A stretch of DNA of 64,000 nucleotides, taken from Escherichia phage anhysbys. The stretch lies in the sequence record NC_052656.1; one strand, given 5' to 3'. Position 1 is the stretch's first letter; each line of letters begins with the position of its first letter. Below, in pieces: positions 11,351 through 22,539 of the stretch. The notes under the pieces were generated by a model. That model worked only from the letters and a program-made list of their open reading frames with translations, had not been told where the DNA came from and did no database searches. A program made the translations under genes and the position numbers.

Positions 11351-11389
11351 TATGCAGATGGGGATGAGAAGAGTTCTCATGTGGAAATG

Positions 11390-11470: not shown

Positions 11471-11727
11471 GAGAATGACGCGCAGGGGCGGTGTTTGTCT
11501 CGCGCTCCCGTGTCCCCTCGCCATGTAATAAGAATAACAGATCCAACCAGGAAAGCAAGCGATTATTTTATCTTTACATTTCTTTACGAATATATAGCGC
11601 CCAGCCTACCGGCGATCAACCTTCCAACCAGTGCCCCTGGTATGTTAGCCCCGCCTTTACGCCGTGGGGTGGCGCTTCCTCTTCTGTATGTAAAACAGTA
11701 TAAGCCCTATCCCTGGGCTTGTCAAGA

Positions 11728-11994: not shown

Positions 11995-12104
11995 GGTATC
12001 GCCCTTTCTTTGTTGTGCGCCCTGGTTGGCGCGGTAGAAAGATGATAGCCTTTTCCTTTATATATAGCAAGCAAAAAGAAAATAAAAAAGATTGAAAAAG
12101 TGGT

Positions 12105-12132
12105 TGACGTTCCTCACCTGGTAGCGTAGTAT
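12105..12132 (+). promoter_or_regulatory. candidate promoter for first gene of plus array
   Basis: TTGACG-16-TAGTAT; ~130 nt leader to ATG 12268. Confidence 0.4.
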
Positions 12133-12267
12133 TCATCTTGTCGAGGGGGGCGCGGCACAACGACAATAAACAACAGGAGGGCGCAATGTAGGACGGGCAA
12201 AGGTGAGGATCTCCATAATCCACCGTCAACCAACAAAAAACATCATTCATCACCTGGAGTTAAAATC

Positions 12268-12465
12268 ATGGCAACATTGCACATAGTAGCGAAAGCAGGA
12301 CAAATCAGCGTCGTGGTAAACGGTTTTACTGAGTTCAGTCATCCCCAGGATGATCATGAAACGGTTTTATCTTTCATTGATTCCCTGTTAGAAATGGGAG
12401 TCATTACAGAAGACCAGCACGCTACAAAGTGCAAGCGCGTTAATCAAATTGCAGGGATAGAATAA
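12268..12465 (+). CDS. hypothetical protein
   Basis: ORF track 65 aa; GGAG RBS; first gene of plus array. Confidence 0.5.
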   Translation: MATLHIVAKAGQISVVVNGFTEFSHPQDDHETVLSFIDSLLEMGVITEDQHATKCKRVNQIAGIE

Positions 12466-12471
12466 AAAGTA

Positions 12472-12530
12472 TTGACAACAAACAACAACCTGATAAGATG
12501 TATCACATAGGGCGGGAAGTGGTTTCCCGC
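12472..12530 (+). promoter_or_regulatory. promoter + 5' stem-loop cassette (PeSL-like)
   Basis: TTGACA, -10 TAAGAT, then GCGGGAA-GTGGT-TTCCCGC hairpin before gene 12556. Confidence 0.6.
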
Positions 12531-12555
12531 TCGTAACAGAAGAGAGATTATCATC

Positions 12556-12828
12556 ATGGCATCATATAGCGCAACAATGATCGTAGCTGGCACAACTGGT
12601 AAACCTATGAGCGGTGGCGGATCTTTCGCTAATATCAACATTGACGGGCGTTTATCCCTGGACGCAGCGATCACCGTGGCGCGGGAAACATTTAAGAAAG
12701 AATGTAAATTCAATAAACAAGATTATCTCGGTTTCGCTATTGAAAAAACCGCGCGTTTTGTTGATTATAAAAGCCCAAAAATGGTTGATACTACACTAAA
12801 AGCGCAAGATGTAGCGTTTTTGCTTTAA
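12556..12828 (+). CDS. hypothetical protein
   Basis: ORF track 90 aa; preceded by promoter/stem-loop cassette. Confidence 0.6.
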   Translation: MASYSATMIVAGTTGKPMSGGGSFANINIDGRLSLDAAITVARETFKKECKFNKQDYLGFAIEKTARFVDYKSPKMVDTTLKAQDVAFLL

Positions 12829-12831
12829 GGC

Positions 12832-12886
12832 TTGACATTAACGAATAATTTGTTAATATGTTACATAAAGCGGGAATAGTTCCCGC
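12832..12886 (+). promoter_or_regulatory. promoter + 5' stem-loop cassette
   Basis: TTGACA, TTAATAT, GCGGGAA-TAG-TTCCCGC. Confidence 0.6.
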
Positions 12887-12904
12887 TATTTGTAAGGTGG
12901 TAGA

Positions 12905-13162
12905 ATGTTTTACATCAAATTAAAAGGTCACGTGATCGCGTTCAAAGATAACGCTTTTTACAGATTAGCAAAATATGCGTTAATACATCCCCACTATGTT
13001 TATATAAGGGGGCGTGATGAAATAAATATCTTTGATCAAACAACATGCGAGAACATCGAGATCCGCAAGGTTGGCGTACGTGATTATCGTACATCTTTCT
13101 ACCCTTGCAAGGATTCAGCAAGTCTTTTTAAAGTATGCCAATTGTTGAAAAAAGGTGGTTAA
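12905..13162 (+). CDS. hypothetical protein
   Basis: ORF track 85 aa; cassette upstream. Confidence 0.55.
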   Translation: MFYIKLKGHVIAFKDNAFYRLAKYALIHPHYVYIRGRDEINIFDQTTCENIEIRKVGVRDYRTSFYPCKDSASLFKVCQLLKKGG

Positions 13163-13721
13163 TATGGGCCGCGAATATGTGATCCAGTCTTGGGTAAAAC
13201 ATGAAGCAGATGATCCGCGCATCGTTCCCGATCATCTTATCGATGAATCCACGGGATATAGCGGTGAGCAAATAGGTAACAGATTAGCACGTAGTAACGG
13301 CAACGTAAAAGCGCGTTATGTGCGCCCTGGTTGGCTGGCAAATGGTAACGCTGATTTATCCAGTGCGGAAGATGCGAGCGACGGCGCGAAAGATAATCCT
13401 TTGTACAAAATTGATCCGGCTTTTCGTGTCCTGGATGAATACCCCAGCAAGATAGCGGCGCTTGATGAAGCTCTGGAAAGTAAGCGCATCACCTGGACCG
13501 CTTACAACATGGCAAAAAACGTACTTGATGGTAAATTGATTCAAGCCGAAAGAAAATTAGCCAAAATTGCAGCCATAGCCCAGGAGGAAGACGAGGAGAC
13601 AACGGAAGAGGAAGAGTACGAAGAGATCCCGCCGTTGTTGTGTGTTGATGCTTTTCCTGATTATCAGCCGACAGAGGAAGAAAAAAGGATCGCACTAGAA
13701 AACTTTGAAAATAGTCTTTGA
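13155..13721 (+). CDS. hypothetical protein with acidic C-terminus
   Basis: ORF track 188 aa. Confidence 0.6.
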   Translation: MVNMGREYVIQSWVKHEADDPRIVPDHLIDESTGYSGEQIGNRLARSNGNVKARYVRPGWLANGNADLSSAEDASDGAKDNPLYKIDPAFRVLDEYPSKIAALDEALESKRITWTAYNMAKNVLDGKLIQAERKLAKIAAIAQEEDEETTEEEEYEEIPPLLCVDAFPDYQPTEEEKRIALENFENSL

Positions 13722-13775
13722 CATATCGCCGCCACTGGCATAATATTTACCACGTAGGGCGGCAATGGTGCCGCT
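13718..13775 (+). promoter_or_regulatory. promoter + 5' stem-loop cassette
   Basis: TTGACA, CATAAT, GGCGGCA-ATGG-TGCCGC. Confidence 0.6.
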
Positions 13776-13783
13776 CATAGTGA

Positions 13784-13879
13784 AATTATGCAAGAGGTTT
13801 ACAATGATTAATAAAGAAAATAGCTTGACGGTTGGAACGATTAACGCTATCATTTTCGCCGTTCCATTTTGGGTTGTAG
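13784..13879 (+). CDS. tiny hydrophobic protein (~31 aa)
   Basis: Own translation MINKENSLTVGTINAIIFAVPFWVVVAAIIF; sits between two cassettes. Confidence 0.4.
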
Positions 13880-13887
13880 TAGCGGCT

Positions 13888-13949
13888 ATTATTTTCTAAA
13901 AAATATTCTTGACAACGTTTTTTAATCTGATAAGATGTATCACATAGGG
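13888..13949 (+). promoter_or_regulatory. promoter + 5' stem-loop cassette
   Basis: TTGACA, TAAGAT, GGCGGCGGAA-TAC-TTCCCCGCC. Confidence 0.6.
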
Positions 13950-13989
13950 CGGCGGAATACTTCCCCGCCAAAACAAAAAGGGTAACACA

Positions 13990-14352
13990 ATGAGCAAGCA
14001 AATTAATACTATCATGTTTAATCTGGTATCTTTCCGCGACGATATGAAAAATTTACCACGTGAAACGGTTGATATTCATGTTTCAGCTTATCGCGCCCTT
14101 ATTGACATGTTACCGCTAAAACGTGATCAATATGCCGCTAACACGATGCTTAATGCTATGCTTAAAAAGATGATTCAAACGGATCTCACCCTAGCGTATG
14201 AGTATCAAGGGCGCTTATATGCAACTTATAACAAGGCGGTACCTGGTCTGGGAAGTACCGAAGAGTTGCACGGCTTAAACCTGGATCAAAACACTTGGGA
14301 TAGTATGCGCCGCGTTATGGTATGGGCCGAAAGCGGTAAAATTTACGAATAA
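13990..14352 (+). CDS. hypothetical protein
   Basis: ORF track 120 aa; cassette upstream. Confidence 0.6.
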   Translation: MSKQINTIMFNLVSFRDDMKNLPRETVDIHVSAYRALIDMLPLKRDQYAANTMLNAMLKKMIQTDLTLAYEYQGRLYATYNKAVPGLGSTEELHGLNLDQNTWDSMRRVMVWAESGKIYE

Positions 14353-14358
14353 AAACGG

Positions 14359-14417
14359 TTGACACTGTTTAAACTTCTGGTATAGTTTACCACATAGGGC
14401 GGGAAGTGGTTTCCCGC
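14359..14417 (+). promoter_or_regulatory. promoter + 5' stem-loop cassette
   Basis: TTGACA, TATAGT, GCGGGAA-GTGGT-TTCCCGC. Confidence 0.6.
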
Positions 14418-14440
14418 CAACAATGAAAAAGGTTATCATC

Positions 14441-14806
14441 ATGGCTATTAATATTAATGTTTCCGCTTATGCTACCCTGGCTGCCACGGCTAAAATTGAA
14501 TTGTCCAGCATTGAGGCGGTGCACATTAGCGCCCGTCGCTGGTTTCAACAGTCTTACGGTAACACATATTTTTCTTTAATGGTTGACGTTGAGATCGGCG
14601 GTAAACTGATCGAGGTGGTTAACGTTCCGTTTCAATATGGCTATGGTGATCATTTTGATACCGTCGCCCTGGAAGAATTTAGCAAGGTTATTAATATGGA
14701 AGGTAAAGAGTTTTCACGCGGCGCGTATCTTTCCCGTTTTTGCCGTGACAATGGGATCACTGTATACAGTCATGCGAGCGATGTTAAACGTAAAAAAGAT
14801 TTATAA
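14441..14806 (+). CDS. hypothetical protein
   Basis: Track frame 14423-14806; start refined to MAININ (pattern ..ATCATCATGGC shared with other array genes). Confidence 0.6.
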   Translation: MAININVSAYATLAATAKIELSSIEAVHISARRWFQQSYGNTYFSLMVDVEIGGKLIEVVNVPFQYGYGDHFDTVALEEFSKVINMEGKEFSRGAYLSRFCRDNGITVYSHASDVKRKKDL

Positions 14807-14813
14807 AAAGCAT

Positions 14814-14872
14814 TGACAGCACGAATAAAAAGAGTAAACTGTATTACATAGAGAGCGGGAACACTTCCCGCC
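14814..14872 (+). promoter_or_regulatory. promoter + 5' stem-loop cassette
   Basis: TTGACA, TAAACT, GCGGGAA-CAC-TTCCCGC. Confidence 0.6.
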
Positions 14873-14895
14873 TCACTGAAAAAGAGAGAAAAATC

Positions 14896-15135
14896 ATGGC
14901 TAAATCTAAAATGTACAACGGTCACAAAAACAAAACTCATTGGAATGTAAACCTTTGGATTAATAACGATGAATCGTTATACCGGTTGGCCCAAGATTTT
15001 ATTAACGCTAATGCTAATCGTAATGATGCGGCGCGGGATATGATGCTTTTTCTGGAACAAACTGGACAAGATAAAACGCCAGACGGTTTCAAATATAGCA
15101 CTACTGCGATCCGTGCCGCGATGGTTGGAATGTAA
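14896..15135 (+). CDS. hypothetical protein
   Basis: ORF track 79 aa; cassette upstream. Confidence 0.6.
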   Translation: MAKSKMYNGHKNKTHWNVNLWINNDESLYRLAQDFINANANRNDAARDMMLFLEQTGQDKTPDGFKYSTTAIRAAMVGM

Positions 15136-15144
15136 TAAAAACAG

Positions 15145-15203
15145 TTGACAACGTTTAAAATTAGTGTAAGATGTATCACATAGGGCGGGAAGTGGTTTCC
15201 CGC
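15145..15203 (+). promoter_or_regulatory. promoter + 5' stem-loop cassette
   Basis: TTGACA, TAAGAT, GCGGGAA-GTGGT-TTCCCGC (same as 12472 copy). Confidence 0.6.
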
Positions 15204-15225
15204 CAAAACAGAGAGATTAAAGATT

Positions 15226-15453
15226 ATGGCTATCAATATTGTTCGCGTATCTGGCACCGTTGGCACTTCCCAGGTCATTGCCGTTGTAACAAACAAAAAG
15301 ATTAATGATGTATGTGAGATCTTGAATAAGTGGGCTGTTGCTAATTTTGGGGAATATGCAAGCGTTGAGTACATCGAATCCTACCAGGTGCCAACCATCA
15401 GCCTAACCGATCTCAACGTTGATCGCCTGTTATGCCTGGACGAATTAATCTGA
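15226..15453 (+). CDS. hypothetical protein
   Basis: ORF track 75 aa; cassette upstream. Confidence 0.6.
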   Translation: MAINIVRVSGTVGTSQVIAVVTNKKINDVCEILNKWAVANFGEYASVEYIESYQVPTISLTDLNVDRLLCLDELI

Positions 15454-15462
15454 AAAAGATTG

Positions 15463-15519
15463 TTGACACCGGAAAGAAAAAGAGTAAACTGTATTACGTA
15501 GGGCGGCAATGGTGCCGCT
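15463..15519 (+). promoter_or_regulatory. promoter + 5' stem-loop cassette
   Basis: TTGACA, TAAACT, GGCGGCA-ATGG-TGCCGC. Confidence 0.6.
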
Positions 15520-15543
15520 CACAACAGAAGAGAGATTATTACG

Positions 15544-15759
15544 ATGGCCAATATCCGCACACTGTTAAAAAATGCAAGTCAAGTTTTATTTTCAGATGAC
15601 GAGTATTTCAATAAAGACATTACAGGCGTAAAAAATCTTAAAGATGTAAAGGATGTGATAGGTATTCGCGGATCTTTACGTAAAGGTGACTACTACGGCA
15701 ATAAAGTACAATATAAATTAAATCAGTCTTATGATTTTACTTTGACAATTATTTCATAA
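15544..15759 (+). CDS. hypothetical protein
   Basis: ORF track 71 aa; cassette upstream. Confidence 0.55.
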   Translation: MANIRTLLKNASQVLFSDDEYFNKDITGVKNLKDVKDVIGIRGSLRKGDYYGNKVQYKLNQSYDFTLTIIS

Positions 15760-15764
15760 AACCG

Positions 15765-15827
15765 CTTGCAATCTTAATAAAATAAAGTAAACTGTATTAC
15801 ATCAAGGCGGCGGAATGGTCCACCGCC
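15765..15827 (+). promoter_or_regulatory. promoter + 5' stem-loop cassette
   Basis: CTTGCA, TAAACT, GGCGGCGGA-ATGG-TCCACCGCC. Confidence 0.55.
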
Positions 15828-15851
15828 TAACAAAGAGAAGAGGAAAACACC

Positions 15852-16019
15852 ATGATCACTTTCGCTACCCGTGAAGCCGCTCGCAACGTTGCCCGTAAAG
15901 TTAACGCCGCCAACCTGGGCGCTACGTTTAAAGCACCTGTAAAAGATGAATCAGGAAAATGGATCTTCCCTGGTCTGCGTCACGCTGATAAGCTAGGCAC
16001 TTTAAGCCTTAAAAAATAA
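15852..16019 (+). CDS. small hypothetical protein (~55 aa)
   Basis: Own translation MITFATREAARNVARKVNAANLG...; cassette upstream; shares 5' leader and first codons with 16094 gene. Confidence 0.45.
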   Translation: MITFATREAARNVARKVNAANLGATFKAPVKDESGKWIFPGLRHADKLGTLSLKK

Positions 16020-16022
16020 TCG

Positions 16023-16059
16023 TTGACTTTTCGTTATAGCGCCTTATAATGGGCGCTAT
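16023..16059 (+). promoter_or_regulatory. near-consensus sigma70 promoter with -10 inside a palindrome
   Basis: TTGACT-16-TATAAT; inverted repeat ATAGCGCC-TTATAATG-GGCGCTAT encloses -10. Confidence 0.6.
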
Positions 16060-16093
16060 AGAGAAGAGAAACCACTACTGACAAGGAAACACC

Positions 16094-16315
16094 ATGATCA
16101 CTTTCGCTATTGTCGCCGTTGTTGCTGGTCAAGTTTACGTAAACGATACATTCACCACAGAAGACAAGGCCGCAGGAGATATAACCGCCGTTTACAACGA
16201 GTGCAAGGCAGTAGAAAGGATGTTAGCGCCTTGTATGTTAATGAGTGAACGCCAGGACGGGATAACAGTGTTTACTAACATTGAGACAGGGTACCAAATG
16301 GTAGTAACAAAATAA
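16094..16315 (+). CDS. hypothetical protein
   Basis: ORF track 73 aa; TTGACT-16-TATAAT promoter upstream. Confidence 0.55.
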   Translation: MITFAIVAVVAGQVYVNDTFTTEDKAAGDITAVYNECKAVERMLAPCMLMSERQDGITVFTNIETGYQMVVTK

Positions 16316-16318
16316 AGC

Positions 16319-16375
16319 TTGACACGGATTTAATTTTCAGTAAACTGTTACACGTAGGGCGGGAATAGTTCCCGC
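16319..16375 (+). promoter_or_regulatory. promoter + 5' stem-loop cassette
   Basis: TTGACA, TAAACT, GCGGGAA-TAG-TTCCCGC. Confidence 0.6.
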
Positions 16376-16393
16376 TAAAAAGAGAGAAAAACC

Positions 16394-16747
16394 ATGAAAG
16401 CACAAAATGCAATTAAAGAGTACATCCTTGCCGCTATCGATTTTAATGATTACGGTATTACAACCGAAAAAGAGAAGATCGCGGAATTGATGCGCCGTTT
16501 TAATTCCGAGTACTGGTACCCTGATAACCAATCACGTTTTAATTATAGTATTGTTAAAGCACTTGCATCATGGTTACAAGGTTTGCCATCAGATATTAAT
16601 ATCGCTTTCGAATATTGGGAAATTGATCGCTTGTTAACATCCTGGGGATACATTAAAGAGAATAGCAGCGATGATAAAATCCAACGAGAAAGGGAAAATT
16701 ATTGGCTTTATATTGCAGGCGTGATCCTTGCTTGCTCTTATGAATGA
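16394..16747 (+). CDS. hypothetical protein
   Basis: ORF track 117 aa; cassette upstream. Confidence 0.6.
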   Translation: MKAQNAIKEYILAAIDFNDYGITTEKEKIAELMRRFNSEYWYPDNQSRFNYSIVKALASWLQGLPSDINIAFEYWEIDRLLTSWGYIKENSSDDKIQRERENYWLYIAGVILACSYE

Positions 16748-16753
16748 TAAACC

Positions 16754-16807
16754 TTGACAATTTTACAAAACAGTTTAAATTAATAATATAGCGGCAATGG
16801 TGCCGCT
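16754..16807 (+). promoter_or_regulatory. promoter + 5' stem-loop cassette
   Basis: TTGACA, TAATAA/AATATA, GCGGCA-ATGG-TGCCGC. Confidence 0.55.
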
Positions 16808-16826
16808 CATATAAAGAGGAAACAAA

Positions 16827-16973
16827 ATGAATACATCTAATCGCGCAGAAAAAATCCAATCTTCCAAGATCCGCAAGGCCTGGAACGAGGAAGTGATCCG
16901 CAAAGGCGACAAGCGCAATAAAACAAAGCGCGGGAAGAGTGACAAATATAATTGGATGGATTTAGAGGATTAA
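16827..16973 (+). CDS. small basic protein (~48 aa)
   Basis: Own translation MNTSNRAEKIQSSKIRKAWNEEVIRKGDKRNKTKRGK...; cassette upstream, terminator downstream. Confidence 0.45.
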   Translation: MNTSNRAEKIQSSKIRKAWNEEVIRKGDKRNKTKRGKSDKYNWMDLED

Positions 16974-16979
16974 CATAAC

Positions 16980-17007
16980 AAGGGCGCACCAAGCGCCCTT
17001 TCTTTTT
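16980..17007 (+). terminator. rho-independent terminator
   Basis: AAGGGCGC-ACCA-AGCGCCCTT + TCTTTTT. Confidence 0.7.
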
Positions 17008-17028
17008 ACATGTAGAGGATAAACAAAG

Positions 17029-17214
17029 ATGACTTTAAGCGAGCTTAAAACAGCCTACAACGCAACGTTAAAAATAGCCGTGCGTTACCGTGATGCGTAC
17101 GGTTTTATCGCGCAGGGCGTGATCCTGGGCTTTTCTGACGATGGTTTGATCTATGTTGATGCACATTATAACAAGGTAAAACCTGAAAACGTCATTAGCA
17201 TAAAATATCTTTAA
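17029..17214 (+). CDS. hypothetical protein
   Basis: ORF track 61 aa. Confidence 0.5.
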   Translation: MTLSELKTAYNATLKIAVRYRDAYGFIAQGVILGFSDDGLIYVDAHYNKVKPENVISIKYL

Positions 17215-17220
17215 AAGTGG

Positions 17221-17280
17221 TTGACACCATAACCGGACCTGTTAAACTGTATTACATCAGGCGGGGAATAGTTCCCCACC
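17221..17280 (+). promoter_or_regulatory. promoter + 5' stem-loop cassette
   Basis: TTGACA, TAAACT, GCGGGGAA-TAG-TTCCCCAC. Confidence 0.6.
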
Positions 17281-17299
17281 ATACAAAAAGGTAAATATT

Positions 17300-17506
17300 A
17301 TGATCACCGCAAAACAAGAGAAAATCATTATCGACGTTGCAGCCGTTGCCGCTATTGCTATTATTGGATCTTATTATGATACCCGTTTCCCGTCGGCTAT
17401 GCATGAGATCGCCGCCGTTGCATCAGTTGGCGTACTGTTTTACGTTGGTAAACGCTATTTATCACCAATGATTAACAAGCTGACACCGTGGAAAAATAAA
17501 GGTTGA
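17300..17506 (+). CDS. small membrane protein
   Basis: ORF track 68 aa; hydrophobic IIIDVAAVAAIAIIGSYY / AAVASVGVLFYVG. Confidence 0.55.
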   Translation: MITAKQEKIIIDVAAVAAIAIIGSYYDTRFPSAMHEIAAVASVGVLFYVGKRYLSPMINKLTPWKNKG

Positions 17507-17557
17507 TCCTGTTTTATATTGTGTTATAGTTATCGTGTAGGGCGGCAATGGTGCCGC
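17503..17557 (+). promoter_or_regulatory. promoter + 5' stem-loop cassette
   Basis: TTGATC, TATAGT, GGCGGCA-ATGG-TGCCGC. Confidence 0.55.
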
Positions 17558-17577
17558 GCCCCTTTGAGGATGCAATC

Positions 17578-17862
17578 ATGAGTAAAGCTAACACCGTGCT
17601 AATGTTTTCCCTGATTAATGATCCCGCTTACTTGTCCAACATGACGCAGGAGGGTAACACATTAACGGCAACATTCACCAATAAGCTTGACCGGGTGATC
17701 ATCATCTCACTGAAAACAGTTAGTAAAGGCTTTTACTCGTTAGCTTATCATTGGATCACCGATACCGATGAGACAAGCCAGGACTATAGCGCCCCTTTCC
17801 CTGAATCAATGGCACGGGAGATCATCGCCGCCGTTGTAAATGATGGTTTGTTTACTGCATAA
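17578..17862 (+). CDS. hypothetical protein
   Basis: Track frame; start refined to MSKANTVLMF downstream of cassette. Confidence 0.6.
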   Translation: MSKANTVLMFSLINDPAYLSNMTQEGNTLTATFTNKLDRVIIISLKTVSKGFYSLAYHWITDTDETSQDYSAPFPESMAREIIAAVVNDGLFTA

Positions 17863-17880
17863 AATAATTTAGAAAAAGGC

Positions 17881-17937
17881 TTGCAATCATTTTGAGATAG
17901 TGTATATTTAATTCATAGGGCGGCGGGAATAGTTCCC
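17881..17937 (+). promoter_or_regulatory. promoter + 5' stem-loop cassette
   Basis: TTGCAA, TATATT, GGGAA-TAG-TTCCC. Confidence 0.55.
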
Positions 17938-17960
17938 AAAGCAAACGAGAGGATTACACG

Positions 17961-18080
17961 ATGAGCAAGTACACAGTAGAATACACGGTAGAAAATCCGG
18001 CAGTATCCGAAGGTAAAAAGATGACATTTGCCATCAGTATAATCGCTTTCGTTGTCACTATCTTATCAATCATCTTATAA
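17961..18080 (+). CDS. tiny membrane protein (~39 aa)
   Basis: Own translation MSKYTVEYTVENPAVSEGKKMTFAISIIAFVVTILSIIL; cassette upstream. Confidence 0.4.
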   Translation: MSKYTVEYTVENPAVSEGKKMTFAISIIAFVVTILSIIL

Positions 18081-18090
18081 GGTGCACACC

Positions 18091-18252
18091 ATGAAAACAA
18101 CAGATATTATCAAAGAGATCGCCCATGCCGCTGGCGTTGAGATCGAGGAAGTGATCGCGCTCAATCTTACAGAAAACGATCTGCGCAACTATGAAGCGGA
18201 AAGCGTGAAAGCAAGCGGCGCGGTCCTGGTATATGATCCGGCTAACAAGTAA
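18091..18252 (+). CDS. hypothetical protein
   Basis: Track frame 18052-18252; start refined to MKTTDIIKE after AAGGTG. Confidence 0.5.
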   Translation: MKTTDIIKEIAHAAGVEIEEVIALNLTENDLRNYEAESVKASGAVLVYDPANK

Positions 18253-18261
18253 GGGGATAAC

Positions 18262-18372
18262 ATGAATCCGAAAGATATGCAAGCATGGAAAGGGTACGAC
18301 GATCTAAGCGCCTTGCGCAATAAGTCAAGCCGTAACCTTAGACGGTTGGAAGCAAAGAAAAAGAAAAAATAG
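18262..18372 (+). CDS. tiny basic protein (~36 aa)
   Basis: Own translation MNPKDMQAWKGYDDLSALRNKSSRNLRRLEAKKKKK; AAGGGGA RBS. Confidence 0.35.
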   Translation: MNPKDMQAWKGYDDLSALRNKSSRNLRRLEAKKKKK

Positions 18373-18373
18373 T

Positions 18374-18430
18374 TTGACAAGTCCGCCTAGTCTGATAATA
18401 TGTATCTTGTAGGGCGGCAATGGTGCCGCT
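18374..18430 (+). promoter_or_regulatory. promoter + 5' stem-loop cassette
   Basis: TTGACA, TAATAT, GGCGGCA-ATGG-TGCCGC. Confidence 0.6.
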
Positions 18431-18450
18431 CACAAGAAGAGAGAAAAATC

Positions 18451-18735
18451 ATGAAAATCACAAAAAGCCTAACTAATTATGCAGCACGTCGCGGATTATG
18501 TTTAACCGTTGAAAACTTAGGGAAAGAAGACTTTTTGTGTTTTTGGGAGCTTGAAAATGATTGCGAGTGGATGTTTTCTTATTCTATCTGCGAAGATCAA
18601 AACGGTTGTTTGTTAACCTGGCGCGGTAATATCTATTTACCGGAAGAAATTAAAGAAGAGTTACCAGGTACGATCATGACAGAGAGACAGCTTAAGGAAA
18701 TGATTAATTTTGTAGGGCAAAACATTAAAAAATAA
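18451..18735 (+). CDS. hypothetical protein
   Basis: Track frame; start refined to MKITKSL downstream of cassette. Confidence 0.6.
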   Translation: MKITKSLTNYAARRGLCLTVENLGKEDFLCFWELENDCEWMFSYSICEDQNGCLLTWRGNIYLPEEIKEELPGTIMTERQLKEMINFVGQNIKK

Positions 18736-18736
18736 T

Positions 18737-18797
18737 TTGACAGCACGCAAACAACGTAGTAAAGTTTACCACATAGGGCGGCGGAATGGTCCACCGC
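18737..18797 (+). promoter_or_regulatory. promoter + 5' stem-loop cassette
   Basis: TTGACA, TAAAGT, GGCGGCGGA-ATGG-TCCACCGC. Confidence 0.55.
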
Positions 18798-18820
18798 TCA
18801 CAACAGAAGAGAAACAAATC

Positions 18821-18991
18821 ATGATCCCGACTATGTTTTATGTATCGCGCAAAGGTCACAATATTTTTTGGTCTGAAGATTTAAATGAAGCTATGACGTT
18901 TGCCCGTGATCGTGTTGCTATCGGTGGCGTTAACATCACCGTAACCGATGAAAATGGCATTGAATACTATAACGGCGACGATGAAGAATAA
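18821..18991 (+). CDS. hypothetical protein
   Basis: Track frame; start refined to MIPTMFYVSRKG downstream of cassette. Confidence 0.5.
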   Translation: MIPTMFYVSRKGHNIFWSEDLNEAMTFARDRVAIGGVNITVTDENGIEYYNGDDEE

Positions 18992-19038
18992 TTAATGAGG
19001 CGGGGGAGTATTCCCCGCCGTCAATAAAGAGGTAAATC

Positions 19039-19308
19039 ATGAAAATATCATTGGACGTTGCAATCAAGGCCATCGAATCCGGTTACATCCTGGTAAAAGA
19101 TGATAAGGCTAAAATAGTGCATCATGTTAACAAGGAAACAGGCGAAAGCATGATCACATATAAAGCCGCCTACTTTCTCCAATCAGTAGCAGATCCGCGC
19201 GTACAACGCCAGGTTATGGCGGCTATTGCTAAAAAATTATGTGCTTTACAGGGTACAAGTTTTAACGAGATCGCCCCGTGTTTTGAGTGGTCAAGCTTGA
19301 AAAAATAA
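19039..19308 (+). CDS. hypothetical protein
   Basis: ORF track 89 aa; GC hairpin upstream. Confidence 0.55.
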   Translation: MKISLDVAIKAIESGYILVKDDKAKIVHHVNKETGESMITYKAAYFLQSVADPRVQRQVMAAIAKKLCALQGTSFNEIAPCFEWSSLKK

Positions 19309-19309
19309 T

Positions 19310-19370
19310 TTGACAACAATTATAAATCGGGTAGAATGTATTTCGTAGGGCGGGGCAATAAAGCAACGCC
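19310..19370 (+). promoter_or_regulatory. promoter + degenerate 5' stem-loop cassette
   Basis: TTGACA-16-TAGAAT; GGGCG...CGCCC weaker stem. Confidence 0.5.
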
Positions 19371-19389
19371 CATTAATGAGGGTAGAATC

Positions 19390-19494
19390 ATGTTAGAGAA
19401 AATTTTCACGGTTGTAATAGTGGGCCTGGCGTTATCGGTTGGAGTGGTTGCAACTATGGCTAACATGATCCTATCTTCCCACGGTATCGGTTAA
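19390..19494 (+). CDS. tiny membrane protein (~34 aa)
   Basis: Own translation MLEKIFTVVIVGLALSVGVVATMANMILSSHGIG; cassette upstream. Confidence 0.35.
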   Translation: MLEKIFTVVIVGLALSVGVVATMANMILSSHGIG

Positions 19495-19504
19495 GGTGAA
19501 ACAA

Positions 19505-19720
19505 ATGATCACGAACAAAACAGGCAAAACGGAATTTTTACGCGGCTTACAAGTTGGTAAGCCTGAGATCTGGCATTGCACGAAGTCCGCGCATAATGAA
19601 ATGAAAGATTTTACCGCTACTTTACAACGTGTTAAAATATCTATCACACAGAAAAAAGCCTTGTTAGTAGTAGAAAACGAGATCCCGCAAACTATTATTA
19701 TTGTCGAGCGTACAGCATGA
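19505..19720 (+). CDS. hypothetical protein
   Basis: Track frame 19496-19720 (GTG) ; ATG at 19505 preferred. Confidence 0.5.
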   Translation: MITNKTGKTEFLRGLQVGKPEIWHCTKSAHNEMKDFTATLQRVKISITQKKALLVVENEIPQTIIIVERTA

Positions 19721-20103
19721 AAACAGAAATCATTATTGAAATCATCAACGGCTATAAAGAAGCCTTTATTTTTGCTGAATCAGCAAGGGATCATGAAGGT
19801 AATTTTATTGATAACTTAGACGATTATGATTTTTCTCCTAGCGCGGATCAACGGATCGCACAGGATGTAACAGCCTTTATTAATGCTAATCTTGCCGCTA
19901 TCTCTGAGGCAATGAGCGACGGCGCAACAGCCAACCAGATCGGGAATGATTTACATTTTACCCGTAACGGTCACGGCGTAGGCTTTTGGGATCGCCCTGA
20001 AATATACACCACTAACACGGCGAACCGCCTAACCAATGCAGCTAAGTTTATGCCGAACGTGTCGGCTTACGTTGGTGAAGATAATTTTATTTATATTGAA
20101 TAA
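19717..20103 (+). CDS. hypothetical protein
   Basis: ORF track 128 aa; ATGA overlap. Confidence 0.6.
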   Translation: MKTEIIIEIINGYKEAFIFAESARDHEGNFIDNLDDYDFSPSADQRIAQDVTAFINANLAAISEAMSDGATANQIGNDLHFTRNGHGVGFWDRPEIYTTNTANRLTNAAKFMPNVSAYVGEDNFIYIE

Positions 20104-20109
20104 AAAGTA

Positions 20110-20166
20110 TTGACACAGATCGCCAGTGTGCTAATATTTACCACGTAGGGCGGCAATGGTGCCGCT
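20110..20166 (+). promoter_or_regulatory. promoter + 5' stem-loop cassette
   Basis: TTGACA-16-TAATAT, GGCGGCA-ATGG-TGCCGC. Confidence 0.6.
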
Positions 20167-20187
20167 CCCCGAAAAAGGTAAAACATT

Positions 20188-20379
20188 ATGAAAACTATCA
20201 GCTACCTGGAATCGAATAACATGTTTTTTGCGCCCGTTGATGAAATCATCGAAGCATTAAACAACGAGGAAGGGATCAATGGTTTATCTTATAGCCAGCT
20301 TTTAGGAATGGTTGCAGCAAATGAGGAGCTTGCTTACTATGTTGAAAATTTTGATGAAGCTGTAATCTTTACAAAATAA
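20188..20379 (+). CDS. hypothetical acidic protein
   Basis: ORF track 63 aa; cassette upstream. Confidence 0.55.
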   Translation: MKTISYLESNNMFFAPVDEIIEALNNEEGINGLSYSQLLGMVAANEELAYYVENFDEAVIFTK

Positions 20380-20382
20380 TCC

Positions 20383-20439
20383 TTGATCTAATCTCTCAGA
20401 TAACTTATATTTAATGCGTAGGGCGGCAATGGTGCCGCC
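20383..20439 (+). promoter_or_regulatory. promoter + 5' stem-loop cassette
   Basis: TTGATC, TATATT, GGCGGCA-ATGG-TGCCGCC. Confidence 0.55.
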
Positions 20440-20457
20440 GATAATGAGGAAAACAAA

Positions 20458-20757
20458 ATGGAAACTATCGCTATTGTTACCGTAGAAAAACTGGTTGTTG
20501 GTGATGTATTCGCGTTAATGGTGCCTAACAGCAGCAAGCTGGGCGCTTATGAAGTAATGGATCATAAAAATGAATCATTTGGCGACGGTTGCACAATGGC
20601 GGTAAAATCTTTAAAGGATGGAATCATCCGCCAGGCTAACTGGCACAAAGGGAATCAAGTCGGTTTAATATCAGCTAATTTCTTGCCAGAAGAGCAAACA
20701 TTAGATCAACTATCAGGCGGTAAGACGTTAGCCGAACTACTGGAAACAGCGATCTAA
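20458..20757 (+). CDS. hypothetical protein
   Basis: ORF track 99 aa; cassette upstream. Confidence 0.6.
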   Translation: METIAIVTVEKLVVGDVFALMVPNSSKLGAYEVMDHKNESFGDGCTMAVKSLKDGIIRQANWHKGNQVGLISANFLPEEQTLDQLSGGKTLAELLETAI

Positions 20758-20810
20758 TCGACAAGGGGCGGCAACGCCCCCATTAAACGCAATAGGAAGA
20801 GGATAGACAC

Positions 20811-21095
20811 ATGAAAAAGATGATCGCAGTAGTTGCCCTGGTTGTTGGTATTAACGCGCCTGTAATGGCGAAAGAGTTGCCAGAATCCATCACGTTAACC
20901 GATATTAACGCAGTGAATCGGATCGGTGTTAATTATCGCCTATGCCTTGCCGCTAAAACTTTCCAGGACGGCACAACAGAGTACTACGGATTCGAGGGTA
21001 TCCGCTGCGGTGAGCTTTCACGCGACCTTAAGGAAGATCCAGACCTTGAGGCCATACCGATGACCGTAAACGGTAAAGCCCACGTAAACCGCTAA
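20811..21095 (+). CDS. putative secreted protein
   Basis: ORF track 94 aa; signal-peptide-like MKKMIAVVALVVGINAPVMA. Confidence 0.6.
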   Translation: MKKMIAVVALVVGINAPVMAKELPESITLTDINAVNRIGVNYRLCLAAKTFQDGTTEYYGFEGIRCGELSRDLKEDPDLEAIPMTVNGKAHVNR

Positions 21096-21097
21096 CC

Positions 21098-21232
21098 ATG
21101 AGAAAGGTAATCATCACAATGGGGATCGTAGTAGCAACGCTGGCGCTTATCCCTTTCATGGTTGAATATGTGCTGATTAATGTTGTCCTGGTAGTCAGTG
21201 ACCTATTGGAAACGGTTGGCACCTGGTTTTAA
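21098..21232 (+). CDS. tiny membrane protein (~44 aa)
   Basis: Own translation MRKVIITMGIVVATLALIPFMVEYVLINVVLVVSDLLETVGTWF. Confidence 0.4.
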   Translation: MRKVIITMGIVVATLALIPFMVEYVLINVVLVVSDLLETVGTWF

Positions 21233-21405
21233 GATAATAAATAGGGCTTGCAATAGTCCTATTTTTTGTTATACTTATTGAACGGGCGGCACCTGGGAGC
21301 AGGGGAAGATAATCACCGGAAGACCCCGCTATATATTGATAACTAACGCCTATCAAACAACAAAACATCAAAGGAACAAACTATCAAATCTTTACAATTC
21401 TACCT

Positions 21406-21467
21406 ATTGACACCGGATCACGCTTACATTATTATTTATCACGTAGGGCGAGCAATACAGCAAGCCC
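21406..21467 (+). promoter_or_regulatory. promoter + degenerate 5' stem-loop cassette
   Basis: TTGACA, ATTATT, GGGCGAGCAA...GCAAGCCC imperfect stem. Confidence 0.45.
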
Positions 21468-21484
21468 ACAAAGAGGAAAAGAAG

Positions 21485-21853
21485 ATGAGCAAATCAGCAA
21501 TTAAAGCAGTTGAAAAAGCGCAAGAAGTGATCGCAACGTCTACCACTGGCGCAAAGGTTAATCTGATCGGTTATCTGACAGATGAAACTATCCGTAAAAA
21601 TTGGCGTAATGCTGATTTACTGGCTTGCTTATTGATTAATAGTGTCGCTAATGCTTTCCAGTGTGAAACAGCCGAGAGCCTGGAGGAAAACTTGTTTGAT
21701 AATATGGATCAAGCCATTGAAACCTATATACAATCAAACCTGGATAGCTGGAACAGTAAAACATGGCCAGACAGTTTACGCGATACAACTGATCAACTGA
21801 TCCGCCTTGCCGTGATGGTTGAACGCGATAACGTTTACAACAGCACAAAGTAA
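21485..21853 (+). CDS. hypothetical protein
   Basis: Track frame; start refined to MSKSAIKAVEKAQ after AAGAGGAAAAG; terminator downstream. Confidence 0.6.
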   Translation: MSKSAIKAVEKAQEVIATSTTGAKVNLIGYLTDETIRKNWRNADLLACLLINSVANAFQCETAESLEENLFDNMDQAIETYIQSNLDSWNSKTWPDSLRDTTDQLIRLAVMVERDNVYNSTK

Positions 21854-21861
21854 GATTATAC

Positions 21862-21890
21862 AAGGGGCGCACCAAGCGCCCTTTCTTTTT
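21862..21890 (+). terminator. rho-independent terminator (same sequence as 16980 copy)
   Basis: AAGGGGCGC-ACCA-AGCGCCCTT + TCTTTTT at end of plus array. Confidence 0.7.
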
Positions 21891-22097
21891 GCCCGAACAA
21901 TGTTGATAGCTTTCGCCTATGAAAAACCGACACAGAACAAAATTGAATAAATCGCGGTATCGAGCTAATCAACCATTAAACGAATAACCATACCTCCCAG
22001 GGTAACAGGCTGTTAGAGAGCCATTTATAGCGGTTAAAATCGATCAACAACCAACAACAAACCATCAAAAACACCCTTTTACCTCCTTTCTAGTGCA

Positions 22098-22539
22098 ATG
22101 ATAACCATTATCATCTACCCATGATTATCTATGCAATATAAGCGCATAATTATAATGTTGATAATAGTTCGCAACAACTAACCAACAAACAACATAAAAC
22201 AAGAAGCAAACTAATCATAATCAAAGGAATAATAGCAAGATGATTGATAACGACAAACAATCAAACCATGATGAATACTAAGCAAGATAACGATAACACG
22301 ACAAAACAACCAACTAACGAACAATAACAAACGAAACCATTAAAATAATAACTATTGCCATAATAGTGACTGAATGAAATCATTACAAAACGAATCATTC
22401 CCAGGATCATCATTAGCACGCTATGCCGGACACATAGCGAGCTAATAATAAGCCAACTACACCCCAACAATCATAACCATCGGTGATGGTTATTTCTTGT
22501 TACTGCGTAGCTTGCAATAATTGCAAGCGTAATTACGCT
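22098..22539. repeat. cluster of perfect palindromes in ORF-free region
   Basis: ATGATAACCATTATCAT (22098), ATAACCATCGGTGATGGTTAT (22474), GCTTGCAATAATTGCAAGC (22510), AGCGTAATTACGCT (22526). Confidence 0.5.

Follow-up and report, generated by a model that had tools for sequence, protein, structure and literature searches.

An array of small genes in promoter-hairpin cassettes of a Phapecoctavirus, with candidate 5' RNA barriers and crossover points between phages

The closest described counterparts of the locus analysed here are the PeSL (promoter-early stem-loop) elements of T4-like phages (Arbiol et al. 2010, PMC2839356; Comeau et al. 2014, PMC4122927). As in the present case, they occupy hyperplastic regions composed of small-ORFan arrays. 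Each gene combines an AT-rich tract and sigma-70-like promoter with a G/C stem-loop and an SD, and the indels, replacements and displacements seen between close relatives are bounded by these elements, with crossovers in or beside the stem-loop. The PeSL stem-loops vary in position among five sites, each of which precedes the transcription start, and they terminate upstream transcription (PMC2839356, PMC4122927). A second precedent is provided by the 5'-terminal stem-loops that stabilise E. coli mRNAs such as ompA and papA (Emory 1992; Bouvet and Belasco 1992; as cited in PMC3997798).

The window, that is the whole 64-kb stretch of DNA analysed, originates from a Phapecoctavirus (phAPEC8 group; Stephanstirmvirinae, rV5-like supergroup) and not from a T4-like phage, contrary to the likeness drawn in the original prediction. 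It contains an array of about 9.7 kb which is 78% coding and comprises 31 small ORFs (31-185 aa), 20 of them with a promoter-plus-GC-hairpin module directly 5'. This array is about 95% collinear with those of Mt1B1_P17, tuntematon and ESCO13. PHROG families were matched by 27 of the 30 ORFs tested, and the gene content is almost wholly uncharacterised. The expectation of some 30 small, largely undescribed genes in recurrent modules was borne out; the suggested enrichment in host-takeover or anti-defence functions finds no backing other than one PHROG 'membrane protein' label.

12104..21884, + strand: whole array, with 31 small genes, 22 promoters, 22 GC hairpins and 3 terminators

The module extends over about 90 nt and is made of an A-rich tract, TTGACA, 16-17 nt, TAnnnT, 8-12 nt, a GC hairpin, an A-rich linker containing the RBS (median about 19 nt) and the ATG. 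Twenty copies are present, all on the + strand:

12472..12532, +: Module 1, gene 12556-12828; TTGACA-16-TAAGAT; hairpin 12510-12532, dG -15.5
12832..12887, +: Module 2, gene 12905-13162; hairpin 12869-12887
13718..13776, +: Module 3, 31-aa membrane peptide 13804-13899; hairpin 13757-13776
13909..13969, +: Module 4, gene 13990-14352; hairpin 13948-13969
14359..14418, +: Module 5, gene 14441-14806; hairpin 14398-14418; hybrid junction (event a)
14813..14874, +: Module 6, gene 14896-15135 (DUF7249); hairpin 14853-14874
15145..15204, +: Module 7, gene 15226-15453; hairpin 15184-15204
15463..15520, +: Module 8, gene 15544-15759; hairpin 15501-15520; used as a blastn query
15766..15828, +: Module 9, gene 15852-16019; weaker -35 TTGCAA; hairpin 15805-15828 with internal C.A mismatch
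16319..16376, +: Module 10, gene 16394-16747; hairpin 16358-16376; top covariance-model hit (40.2 bits)
16754..16807, +: Module 11, gene 16827-16973; hairpin 16790-16807
17221..17280, +: Module 12, gene 17300-17506; hairpin 17260-17280
17503..17560, +: Module 13, gene 17578-17862; -35 TTGATC; hairpin 17540-17560
17881..17942, +: Module 14, 39-aa membrane peptide 17961-18080; hairpin from 17920, decayed, 3' arm lost, dG -7.8
18374..18431, +: Module 15, gene 18451-18735; hairpin 18412-18431
18737..18799, +: Module 16, gene 18821-18991; hairpin 18776-18799
19310..19371, +: Module 17, genes 19390-19494, 19505-19720 and 19717-20103; hairpin 19348-19371
20110..20167, +: Module 18, gene 20188-20379 (extra cassette in the window, event b); hairpin 20148-20167
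20383..20439, +: Module 19, gene 20458-20757; hairpin 20422-20439; right-hand repeat of event b
21407..21467, +: Module 20, gene 21485-21853; hairpin 21446-21467; hybrid junction (event c)

Of the 20 copies, 16 have TTGACA as their -35. The spacer measures 16 nt in 16 copies and 17 nt in four, and TAAGAT, TAAACT, TAATAT or a variant serves as the -10. The first paired base of the hairpin lies 8-12 nt past the -10, most commonly 10-11 in the window copies, and the hairpin is predicted to sit at a fixed offset of about +2 to +5 of the transcript. Stems of 5-10 bp, some with internal loops, carry loops of 3-7 nt that vary in sequence (UAG, AUGG, GUGGU, CAC, AAUAAA); an AAU recurs atop the stem, and the single-stranded flank UAGGG is conserved. 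Folding of each element, the check suggested along with the original prediction, gives -10.8 to -15.8 kcal/mol, compared with -4 to -10 for shuffles, the decayed copy of Module 14 excepted. The predicted units of sigma-70-type promoter, hairpin and RBS are thus real, although they number 20 instead of about 21 and the distance to the -10 is 8-12 nt and not 8-9. The 8 nt after the hairpin average 4.9 A and 1.05 T, while the three real terminators have 5-6 T; by this count no U-tract was seen in the array copies, and a terminator scan of the + strand flagged no module hairpin.

Besides the modules, the array possesses two promoters lacking a canonical hairpin, two promoter-less hairpins and three true terminators:

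12104..12132, +: gene 1 promoter, TTGACG-17-TAGTAT, followed by a non-canonical 5' structure TTGTCG...CGACAA
16023..16050, +: plain promoter TTGACT-16-TATAAT of gene 16094-16315, no hairpin downstream (dG -1.0)
16980..17007, +: intrinsic terminator, AAGGGCGCACCAAGCGCCCTT then T-run
18999..19019, +: promoter-less intercistronic hairpin GGCGGGGGAGTATTCCCCGCC, 5' of the variable gene 19039-19308
20766..20781, +: promoter-less hairpin GGGGCGGCAACGCCCC, 5' of genes 20811-21095 and 21098-21232; crossover point (event d)
21239..21272, +: terminator-like hairpin with T-run; junction with an insertion in tuntematon and SKA64
21862..21890, +: intrinsic terminator closing the array; crossover point (event e)

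The site of the gene 1 promoter has a canonical hairpin in phAPEC8, and the variant of the window is shared with PaulScherrer.

The recurrence of promoter and hairpin is real and far beyond chance, as confirmed by several counts. The + strand of the region contains TAGGGCG 15 times, and the motif is found nowhere else in the 64-kb window on either strand. The pattern TTGACA-N16-17-TAnnnT-N9-12-GGCGG is matched 12 times, for 0.00 expected. A hairpin of -10 kcal/mol or lower follows 16 of the 18 strong promoter-like sites in the array and 3 of the 55 outside it (Fisher p = 2.5e-11). The significant copies found with a profile HMM, and with an unfiltered covariance-model search, are confined to the array; no module copy was found outside it in the 64 kb.

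Comparison of 68 orthologous module pairs shows 100% identity for the -35 and 99.0% for the -10, but 94.6% for the spacer, which indicates that the module promoters are under selection. The hairpin (95.8%) is not more identical than the spacer, and what is kept here is structure rather than sequence. Indeed, in 60 distinct hairpin copies from 9 phages, 98.5% of the cells are paired, and two-sided changes in five of the eight stem pairs amount to 82 cells, where shuffles give 28.8 and none out of 500 reaches 82, while controls with slid pairing partners give near-zero two-sided changes. Chimeric arms pair less strongly than native ones, by 3.8 kcal/mol, and substitutions in ortholog hairpins cost +0.86 kcal/mol, compared with +4.96 for an equal number of random ones. 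Whole hairpin types can even be swapped at one orthologous site, the dG staying at about -13; the position of Module 1 carries different types in P17, SKA64 and nepoznato. Over 120 instances, the offset from the -10 is 8-12 nt (mode 10), and it is equally fixed in FV3 (Vequintavirinae) and PaulScherrer (Justusliebigvirus), with different stems.

Among the relatives compared (ESCO13, Mt1B1_P17, tuntematon, SKA64, PaulScherrer and FV3), cassettes are gained, lost, replaced and reordered, and their presence or absence forms a mosaic with divergent alleles. At the hybrid junction of Module 5 (event a), relatives possess one additional gene. The crossover of event b, which also left a hybrid module, lies within a shared 22-nt GTAGGGCGGCAATGGTGCCGC; that of event c, in the hybrid Module 20, in CGTAGGGCG; that of event d in the promoter-less hairpin 20766-20781; and that of event e in the terminator hairpin at 21862, where relatives have one more gene between two terminator copies. 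Another gene replaces 19039-19308 in ESCO13, P17 and tuntematon, and the gene order of PaulScherrer is permuted relative to the window. Homology blocks common to different subfamilies can be seen to begin at hairpins: the two blocks of FV3 (88% and 83% nucleotide identity) start at 19346 and 20761, precisely where hairpin motifs start. Intergenic junctions are partly expected because indels are viable only between genes, and the argument made from these junctions rests on their hybrid-repeat structure. The gain and loss of cassettes with junctions at hairpins, as originally predicted, is therefore observed. The match to PeSL elements holds for this evolutionary role, shuffling at hairpins, and fails for anatomy, because a PeSL stem-loop precedes, overlaps or lies inside the promoter and ends transcription, whereas the window hairpin is fixed 3' of the -10, presumably transcribed from its own promoter, and shows neither U-tract nor sign of terminator function.

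On balance, we lean towards a hyperplastic early-gene region of self-contained cassettes, in which the transcribed 5' hairpin would be a barrier at the RNA level and the module repeats serve as crossover points. Each cassette would offer a strong promoter to the unmodified host sigma-70 RNA polymerase. The start is predicted 7-8 nt past the -10, and the GC hairpin would therefore be transcribed and would form some 2-5 nt into a short leader of about 50 nt, the remainder of which would be the A-rich RBS region under the ribosome. The hairpin would not be a terminator. It would act as a 5' barrier, and as an intercistronic one in read-through transcripts, keeping RppH and RNase E from the 5'-end-dependent decay of these short mRNAs and insulating each RBS against upstream sequence; with 3-4 unpaired 5' nucleotides, the shielding against these two enzymes would be borderline. 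The early timing, the position of the start and the role in RNA stability are inferred from the sequence; no transcriptome paper on these phages was found in the literature. In the DNA, crossovers take place in the module repeats, chiefly in the hairpin, the longest stretch that modules share without a difference. Short-homology recombination there adds, deletes, replaces or reorders whole cassettes, leaving the expression of neighbours undisturbed, and such exchange extends across phage genera and subfamilies.

Other explanations can be weighed against the same observations. The crossovers at hairpins of three unrelated sequences, one of them a terminator, the swapping of hairpin types at orthologous sites and a hairpin identity not above that of the spacer would suit a recombination signal devoid of any RNA role, either a cruciform or hairpin at which replication stalls and template switching is provoked or the target of a phage nuclease, under concerted evolution; Arbiol et al. 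raised the same idea for GGGG...CCCC in PeSLs (PMC2839356). We regard it as unlikely: plain short-homology recombination in the longest tract of identity accounts for the junctions with no need of a dedicated signal, and such a signal leaves unexplained the distance to the -10, which stays fixed in three subfamily-level groups whose stems differ, the constant 19 nt or so to the ATG and the identical layout in mycobacteriophages (see below). A true PeSL-type element, attenuating or terminating upstream transcription and thereby isolating each gene, shares the composite layout (AT-rich tract, sigma-70 promoter, stem-loop, SD) and the cassette shuffling, and might account for the presence of just three canonical terminators for 31 genes. 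It is improbable in view of the T-poor tails, the negative terminator scan and an offset which is fixed instead of taking the five PeSL positions; moreover, a terminator at the hairpin would kill its own gene, because the hairpin is presumably also transcribed from that gene's promoter.

The 5' flank TAGGGCGG of the hairpin is conserved beyond the needs of a pure stability element, which may reflect common descent with gene conversion, or a binding site. A DNA operator could make use of it, a dimeric phage or host repressor on the palindrome at about +3 to +25 ensuring a joint early-to-middle shut-off. A site just 3' of the start is the classic roadblock position, the element is limited to one promoter class, and the mean folds of sense and antisense strands (-14.5 and -13.7 kcal/mol; sense more stable in 38 cases, less stable in 20) did not separate RNA from DNA; G.U is found at the outermost sense pair in 15 of 60 copies, and C.A mismatches, equivalent to U.G on the other strand, are also present. 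The probability of an operator is nevertheless low, since arms, stem and loop vary with complementarity kept and with no fixed half-site or centre-to-centre spacing, promoter-less intercistronic copies exist at 18999 and 20766, and FV3 and the mycobacteriophages have other stems at the same offset. The flank UAGGG and the recurrent AAU, which exceed the demands of stability, and the presence of a single element in each transcript could alternatively point to a protein-binding RNA element for joint early control, such as boxB/nut-like antitermination or a tag for a phage translational repressor or endoribonuclease. This seems quite improbable given the diversity of the loops, the absence of any matching Rfam family for the hairpin even at E = 1, the lack of an identified candidate partner and the mere three terminators to read through. 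Finally, record JX561091.1 of phAPEC8 labels (G/A)TAGGGCGGCAATGGTGCCG a 'putative promoter determined with PHIRE'. That this 20-mer is a phage-specific promoter is very improbable: PHIRE detects repeated 20-mers and nothing more, the annotation of the complete genome of the relative Mt1B1_P17 lists no phage RNA polymerase, the sequence varies while pairing is kept, a consensus sigma-70 promoter under strong purifying selection lies directly 5', and only about 19 nt are left before the ATG.

With the RNA barrier as the preferred reading, the ompA and papA leaders offer a functional parallel: a stable hairpin a few nucleotides from the 5' end (here predicted), then the RBS, with RppH and RNase E expected to be hindered in 5'-end-dependent decay. 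They differ in that the window element is repeated 20 times in a mobile module and would leave about 3-4 unpaired 5' nucleotides. The integron attC cassettes also form one-directional arrays of small, mostly uncharacterised genes, each bounded by an imperfect inverted repeat that is the site of exchange; the window array, however, has no integrase or attI, carries a promoter in every cassette, and its exchange resembles short-homology rather than site-specific recombination. The repeat itself was already seen in 2012, because the phAPEC8 record annotates the same two elements at orthologous sites, the PHIRE 'putative promoter' beside a 'host dependent promoter determined with MEME'; it reads the repeat as a second, phage-specific promoter and not as a hairpin, a part of the 5' UTR or a recombination junction. 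Lastly, small-gene arrays with the same order and offset occur in Cluster B mycobacteriophages (Phaedrus, Hosp, KayaCho), a layout for which no description was found in the literature searched. A brief look shows TTGACA-N16/17-TATTGT or TAACTT, 10-12 nt, GGCGGGAC-GGA-CCCGCC, a GGAG RBS and ATG, at least 12 times in Phaedrus. These phages are high-GC siphoviruses of Actinobacteria unrelated to the phage of the window, and the likeness is therefore presumably convergent.

The array on the + strand at 12104-21884 is built from a recurring module. The original prediction of about 21 cassettes, each combining a promoter, a hairpin and an RBS, was confirmed by reading of the sequence and anchoring on the hairpins, with a count of 20 copies, all on the + strand. 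Their elements follow one another in a constant order: an A-rich tract, the -35 hexamer, a spacer, the -10 hexamer, a stretch of 8-12 nt commonly ending in CAC(A/G)TAG, a GC hairpin, an A-rich linker carrying the RBS, and the ATG. The -35 hexamer is TTGACA in 16 of the 20 copies, the spacer measures 16 nt in 16 copies and 17 nt in 4, and the -10 hexamer is of the TAAGAT, TAAACT, TAATAT or TATAGT type, with an extended -10 TG in 8 copies. The hairpins fold at -10.8 to -15.8 kcal/mol, with the exception of a decayed copy at 17920 (-7.8 kcal/mol), and the linker from hairpin to ATG, with its purine-rich RBS, has a median length of 19 nt. The intergenic gaps that bear modules span 71-98 nt, in an array whose 31 ORFs measure 31-185 aa, have plausible RBSs and give a coding fraction of 78%. 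A -10-like GATTAT located just 5' of some ATGs was considered as a downstream promoter and rejected, since it is absent from most modules. The following features were also located in the array.

Features of the array (12104-21884, + strand) other than the 20 modules
12104, + strand: promoter without canonical hairpin
16023, + strand: promoter without canonical hairpin
18999-19019, + strand: hairpin without promoter
20766-20781, + strand: hairpin without promoter
16980, + strand: genuine terminator
21239, + strand: genuine terminator
21862, + strand: genuine terminator

The word TAGGGCG occurs 15 times on the + strand within this region and nowhere else in the 64 kb on either strand, and the composite pattern TTGACA-N16-17-TAnnnT-N9-12-GGCGG gives 12 matches versus 0.00 in 100 shuffles. 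When the count was limited to promoter-like sites with a score of 10 or more out of 12, a hairpin of -10 kcal/mol or stronger was present within 40 nt of 16 of the 18 sites of the array and of 3 of the 55 sites elsewhere in the window (Fisher p = 2.5e-11), all three of the latter being terminator-like. A profile HMM of the module retrieved 20 copies in the window, none of them outside the array, and the significant matches of a covariance model run with its filters off were likewise confined to the array. Applied to the whole Mt1B1_P17 genome, the same HMM detected 21 array copies and 1 outside. This sole non-array module of the complete genome lies directly 5' of a TerC-like membrane protein gene (21331-21414 of the Mt1B1_P17 record L006, at about 35.8 kb), in a part of the genome that the window does not cover. 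Elsewhere in the window, strong promoter-like sites followed within ~20-45 nt by a terminator-like GC hairpin and a T-run were observed at 40739 (+), 42822 (-) and 60835 (-). They gave no Rfam match and could correspond to tiny RNAs, attenuators or bidirectional terminator arrangements.

The conservation of the modules was analyzed in 68 collinear pairs of orthologs from five Phapecoctavirus genomes. Identity in these pairs reaches 100% at the -35 hexamer and 99.0% at the -10 hexamer, and is 94.6% in the spacer between the hexamers and 96.3% in the initial 60 nt of coding sequence. The module promoters look functional. The hairpin is a conserved structure rather than a conserved word: its stems vary (GGGCGGCA/UGCCGCUC, GGCGGGAA/UUCCCGCC, GGGGCG/CGCCCC, GGGGAGAA/UUCUCCCC, GGGGCAA/UUGCCCC), its loops range from 3 to 7 nt, and internal loops are present in some copies. 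A MAFFT alignment of the hairpins, inconsistent with the structure, was discarded and replaced by a covariance model built on 14 copies of equal geometry. The model-guided alignment covers 107 copies, 60 of them distinct, taken from nine phages; 98.5% of its cells are paired. Double-sided changes affect 5 of the 8 pairs, with 82 such cells versus 28.8 in shuffles (0 of 500 shuffles reach 82), in an alignment that is fitted to the model and in which the GC/CG flips may partly be register shifts. Controls in which the pairing partner was slid gave values near zero. Compensatory change across homologs keeps the base pairing, as expected of a conserved structured RNA element. This conclusion, drawn from covariation, is independently backed by folding energies, since chimeric hairpins, in which the two arms come from different copies, lose 3.8 kcal/mol on average and the differences between orthologous hairpins cost +0.86 kcal/mol versus +4.96 for equally many random changes. 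Three relatives have wholly different hairpin types in the position of module 1, and the energy is nearly constant, at about -13 kcal/mol, in the two relatives from which the complete hairpin was recovered. Sense and antisense folding differ by 0.8 kcal/mol only, the sense strand being the more stable in 38 cases versus 20, which is too little to tell an RNA hairpin from a DNA palindrome, and the purine-rich 5' arms are uninformative as to RNA or DNA because a perfect inverted repeat is identical on both strands. Rfam gave no match at E <= 1 in 11000-23000 and none at the gathering score in the whole window; none of its covariance models for known RNA families (boxB/nut, put, leaders and others) was matched, and a tRNA scan returned no match.

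The distance between promoter and hairpin is constrained as well. Over 120 instances, 8-12 unpaired nt (mode 10) separate the -10 hexamer from the first paired base, and the same offset is found in FV3 (Vequintavirinae) and PaulScherrer (Justusliebigvirus) despite different stems and preceding sequences. E. coli RNA polymerase initiates 7-8 nt past the -10 hexamer. Given such a start, the predicted position of the first hairpin base is about +2 to +5. A 5'-terminal stem-loop acting as a stabilizer must lie ~0-4 nt from the actual 5' end, whereas the +2 to +5 obtained here is counted from a predicted start. Two other functions can be weighed for this hairpin. The original prediction had also envisaged an operator; a palindromic repressor operator calls for a fixed half-site and a fixed spacing, and a hairpin with stems of differing sequence and length and with loops of differing length does not appear to be one. 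Termination is the other candidate function. The 8 nt 3' of the stem contain on average 1.05 T and 4.9 A, compared with 5-6 T at the three real terminators of the same array used as positive controls, and the module hairpins were not flagged by a terminator scan. By their sequence, such A-rich, T-poor tails argue against intrinsic terminators on the + strand.

A megablast search with 12268-21853 returned 17 phage records with at least 80% coverage, including Mt1B1_P17, tuntematon, vB_EcoM-P3322 and ESCO13. All are E. coli myoviruses of 150 kb belonging to the genus Phapecoctavirus, subfamily Stephanstirmvirinae, and this genus is the phAPEC8 group within the rV5-like supergroup (PMC3606486). 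With its 94-97% identity to these genomes, the phage is not of the T4 type, though the region is hyperplastic. The complete Mt1B1_P17 genome has no annotated phage RNA polymerase, so that transcription should rely on the host enzyme. In the GenBank record of phAPEC8, the sigma-70 part of the module is marked "host dependent promoter (MEME)" and the 20-mer (G/A)TAGGGCGGCAATGGTGCCG is marked "putative promoter determined with PHIRE". The repeat had thus been noticed earlier, but was taken for a promoter. This phage-promoter reading was checked against the polymerase annotation of Mt1B1_P17, which is empty, and against the sequence itself, which covaries as a hairpin; the PHIRE label probably marks a hairpin, and factor-dependent initiation there is conceivable. 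Two Phapecoctavirus papers merely count predicted promoters. Within the literature searched, the coverage of which is incomplete, no paper was found that identifies the motif as a hairpin in the transcript or as a site of recombination, nor any transcriptome for Phapecoctavirus, Vequintavirinae or phi92.

Comparison with related phages was expected to reveal the gain and loss of cassettes with junctions at the hairpins, and it did so through blastn blocks and three-way hybrid junctions. With 11500-22500 as query against five relatives, the ends of the blastn blocks coincide with the repeated elements, and three-way alignments reveal hybrid junctions at the cassette indels between the window and its relatives (events a to e). 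In event b, modules 18 and 19 of the window flank an additional gene, 20188-20379. Only one module is present at this place in ESCO13 and Mt1B1_P17; its left side is identical to module 18 and its right side to module 19, the switch falling within a common 22-nt GTAGGGCGGCAATGGTGCCGC. In event c, module 20 associates the promoter of one ESCO13 module with the hairpin of the next, the switch is located in CGTAGGGCG, and the intervening gene is absent from the window. The junction is the promoter-less hairpin GGGGCGGCAACGCCCC in event d and a terminator hairpin in event e, and it lies at the RBS/ATG of module 5 in event a. Gene 19039-19308 has an unrelated gene in its place in three relatives and is 97-99% identical in SKA64 and in PaulScherrer, a phage of a different genus; several array genes exist as divergent alleles with 65-80% identity. 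The cassette order is permuted in PaulScherrer, and FV3, from a different subfamily, aligns in two long blocks only, 19346-19718 (88%) and 20761-21335 (83%), both of which start where the hairpin motif starts. The evidence for recombination is clear, and these junctions reveal at the nucleotide level the points at which cassettes break and rejoin. Short-homology recombination at the longest identical tracts is the simplest reading; crossovers occur at hairpins of three unrelated sequences, and an active part of the DNA hairpin in the process is conceivable. At gene 1 (12268-12465), about 130 nt of leader lie downstream of the promoter and contain another stem, TTGTCG...CGACAA (12104-12267, aligned with 3455-3541 of the comparison record L002). 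At this position phAPEC8 has a canonical hairpin and a short leader, and PaulScherrer has the variant of the window; this difference is a further module-level replacement.

A composite explanation is somewhat favored, in which the array consists of autonomous early-gene cassettes whose 5' hairpin stabilizes the RNA and whose recombination takes place at the hairpins. Within it, the anatomy of promoter and transcribed hairpin and the role in recombination are much more secure than the role in stability, which we infer. Host RNA polymerase would fire at every cassette promoter with no need of a phage factor, as suggested by near-consensus hexamers under selection and by the A-rich upstream tracts. 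A stable stem-loop would lie a few nt from the 5' end of the transcript, and the remaining ~20 nt of leader would be covered by the initiating ribosome, leaving little naked RNA. Stem-loops at the 5' terminus are known to protect mRNAs of E. coli from 5'-end-dependent decay; the ompA and papA leaders and the work of Emory, Bouvet and Belasco, as cited in PMC3997798, show this. Where transcripts read through, and likewise at the two copies that lack a promoter, the hairpin would be intercistronic and might serve as a 3' or processing barrier and as an RBS insulator. The array provides about 20 natural, compact promoter/leader parts, and their influence on mRNA stability lends itself to direct testing.

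The products of the array were compared with protein family databases. PHROG matches were obtained for 27 of the 30 proteins tested, 26 of them in families of unknown function and 1 labeled "membrane protein", with 3 proteins unmatched; no PHROG match was obtained for 19039-19308 and 20188-20379, the two cassettes that vary most. The 20 proteins run against Pfam gave a single match, DUF7249, for gene 14896-15135. Four or five hydrophobic peptides of 31-68 aa are encoded in the array, and one protein has a signal peptide. These results neither support nor refute the anti-defense functions initially suggested. The array marks 31 conserved, presumably early genes without assigned function as a variable accessory set. 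In the tuntematon, ukendt and SKA64 records, the orthologs of 15544-15759 (71 aa) are labeled 'phosphoribosylpyrophosphate synthetase' and those of 16827-16973 (48 aa) 'TDP-4-keto-6-deoxy-D-glucose transaminase'. Both products fall in PHROGs of unknown function, the 71-aa one has no Pfam match, and their lengths are far too small for those enzymes; the labels look like propagated annotation errors. A Srd-like RNase E activator, an idea from the rV5 paper, was dropped, as none appeared in PHROG scans of ten neighboring genes.

The regions flanking the array present features of their own. On its left, the non-coding DNA at 11391-11472 contains three tandem 29-bp units, each with a Fur-box-like core (AAATGATAATGATTCGCATTT, AAATGAGAATGATTCTTATTT, AAATGATAATCATTCTCATTT), and 11447-11465 has 3 mismatches to the E. 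coli Fur consensus. Similar GATAATCATTCTC cores are found at the equivalent place in PaulScherrer and FV3. These units may represent iron/Fur control of a phage promoter region, or iterons. Directly 3' of the array, about 1.6 kb (21885-23460) are ORF-poor and AT-rich (GC 0.35 at 22001-23000). Mt1B1_P17, nepoznato and FV3 share this gap, which the rV5 paper (PMC3606486) terms 'non-coding' and in which many GenBank records for the phage group begin or finish; it could serve as origin, terminus or packaging region.

A comparable layout was encountered in a distant group. A scan of IMG/VR with a degenerate pattern gave mainly chance single matches, and three contigs of ~70 kb with many, which are the Cluster B mycobacteriophages Phaedrus, Hosp and KayaCho (comparison records L019-L024 and L032). 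On brief inspection, their small-gene arrays display TTGACA-N16/17-TATTGT/TAACTT, 10-12 nt, a GGCGGGAC-GGA-CCCGCC hairpin, a GGAG RBS and the ATG. The order and the offset of the elements are like those of the window, whereas the lineage and the host phylum are unrelated, and this recurrence argues that the layout is functional and linked to the 5' end of the transcript. No description of the Cluster B layout was found in the literature searched. The likeness suggests that early phage genes follow a general design rule. Going further, promoter, 5' hairpin and RBS might form a general, convergently evolved cassette platform in which one GC hairpin does two jobs, a proposal that is rather improbable as it stands. 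If it were true, the RNA hairpin would shield the 5' ends of short early mRNAs, possibly against a phage-accelerated decay of host mRNA, and the DNA hairpin would be a favored crossover site, by which ready-to-express cassettes would move between genomes with no integrase. Its scope would cover the rV5-like subfamilies (Vequintavirinae, Phapecoctavirus, Justusliebigvirus) and, independently, the Cluster B mycobacteriophages.

The known system closest to these modules in the original prediction is the promoter-early stem-loop (PeSL) of T4-like phages, whose description includes the formation of excised cassette mini-circles during infection. As described by Arbiol et al., a PeSL combines a sigma-70-like early promoter and a stem-loop with an AT-rich tract and an SD; five positions are open to the stem-loop (upstream of the -35, over it, between the hexamers, over the -10, or just before the start), and it acts as a terminator or attenuator of transcription from upstream (PMC2839356). 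Comeau et al. place it immediately 5' of the promoter (PMC4122927). The PeSL interpretation holds for the composite layout, since AT-rich tract, sigma-70-like promoter, stem-loop and SD/ATG are all found in the window modules, and for the evolutionary behavior, with indels and replacements among close relatives bounded by the elements and crossovers within them. It fails for the position of the hairpin, always 8-12 nt downstream of the -10 whereas PeSL stem-loops are variable and before the start; for termination, as the absence of a U-tract leaves no terminator signature in the sequence; and for the lineage, Phapecoctavirus instead of T4-like myoviruses, even if a hyperplastic region is common to both. 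The underlying concept goes back 15 years, and a database record had flagged the motif before. The idea of regulatory cassettes driving modular shuffling is no longer confined to T4-like phages and extends to the rV5/phAPEC8 supergroup, a large group much used in phage therapy, where the anatomy is distinct, with a 5' hairpin at a fixed position and predicted to be transcribed. The window element is PeSL-like in genome evolution and lies outside the PeSL family as defined; it is best described as a PeSL-like regulatory cassette of the rV5/phAPEC8 supergroup.
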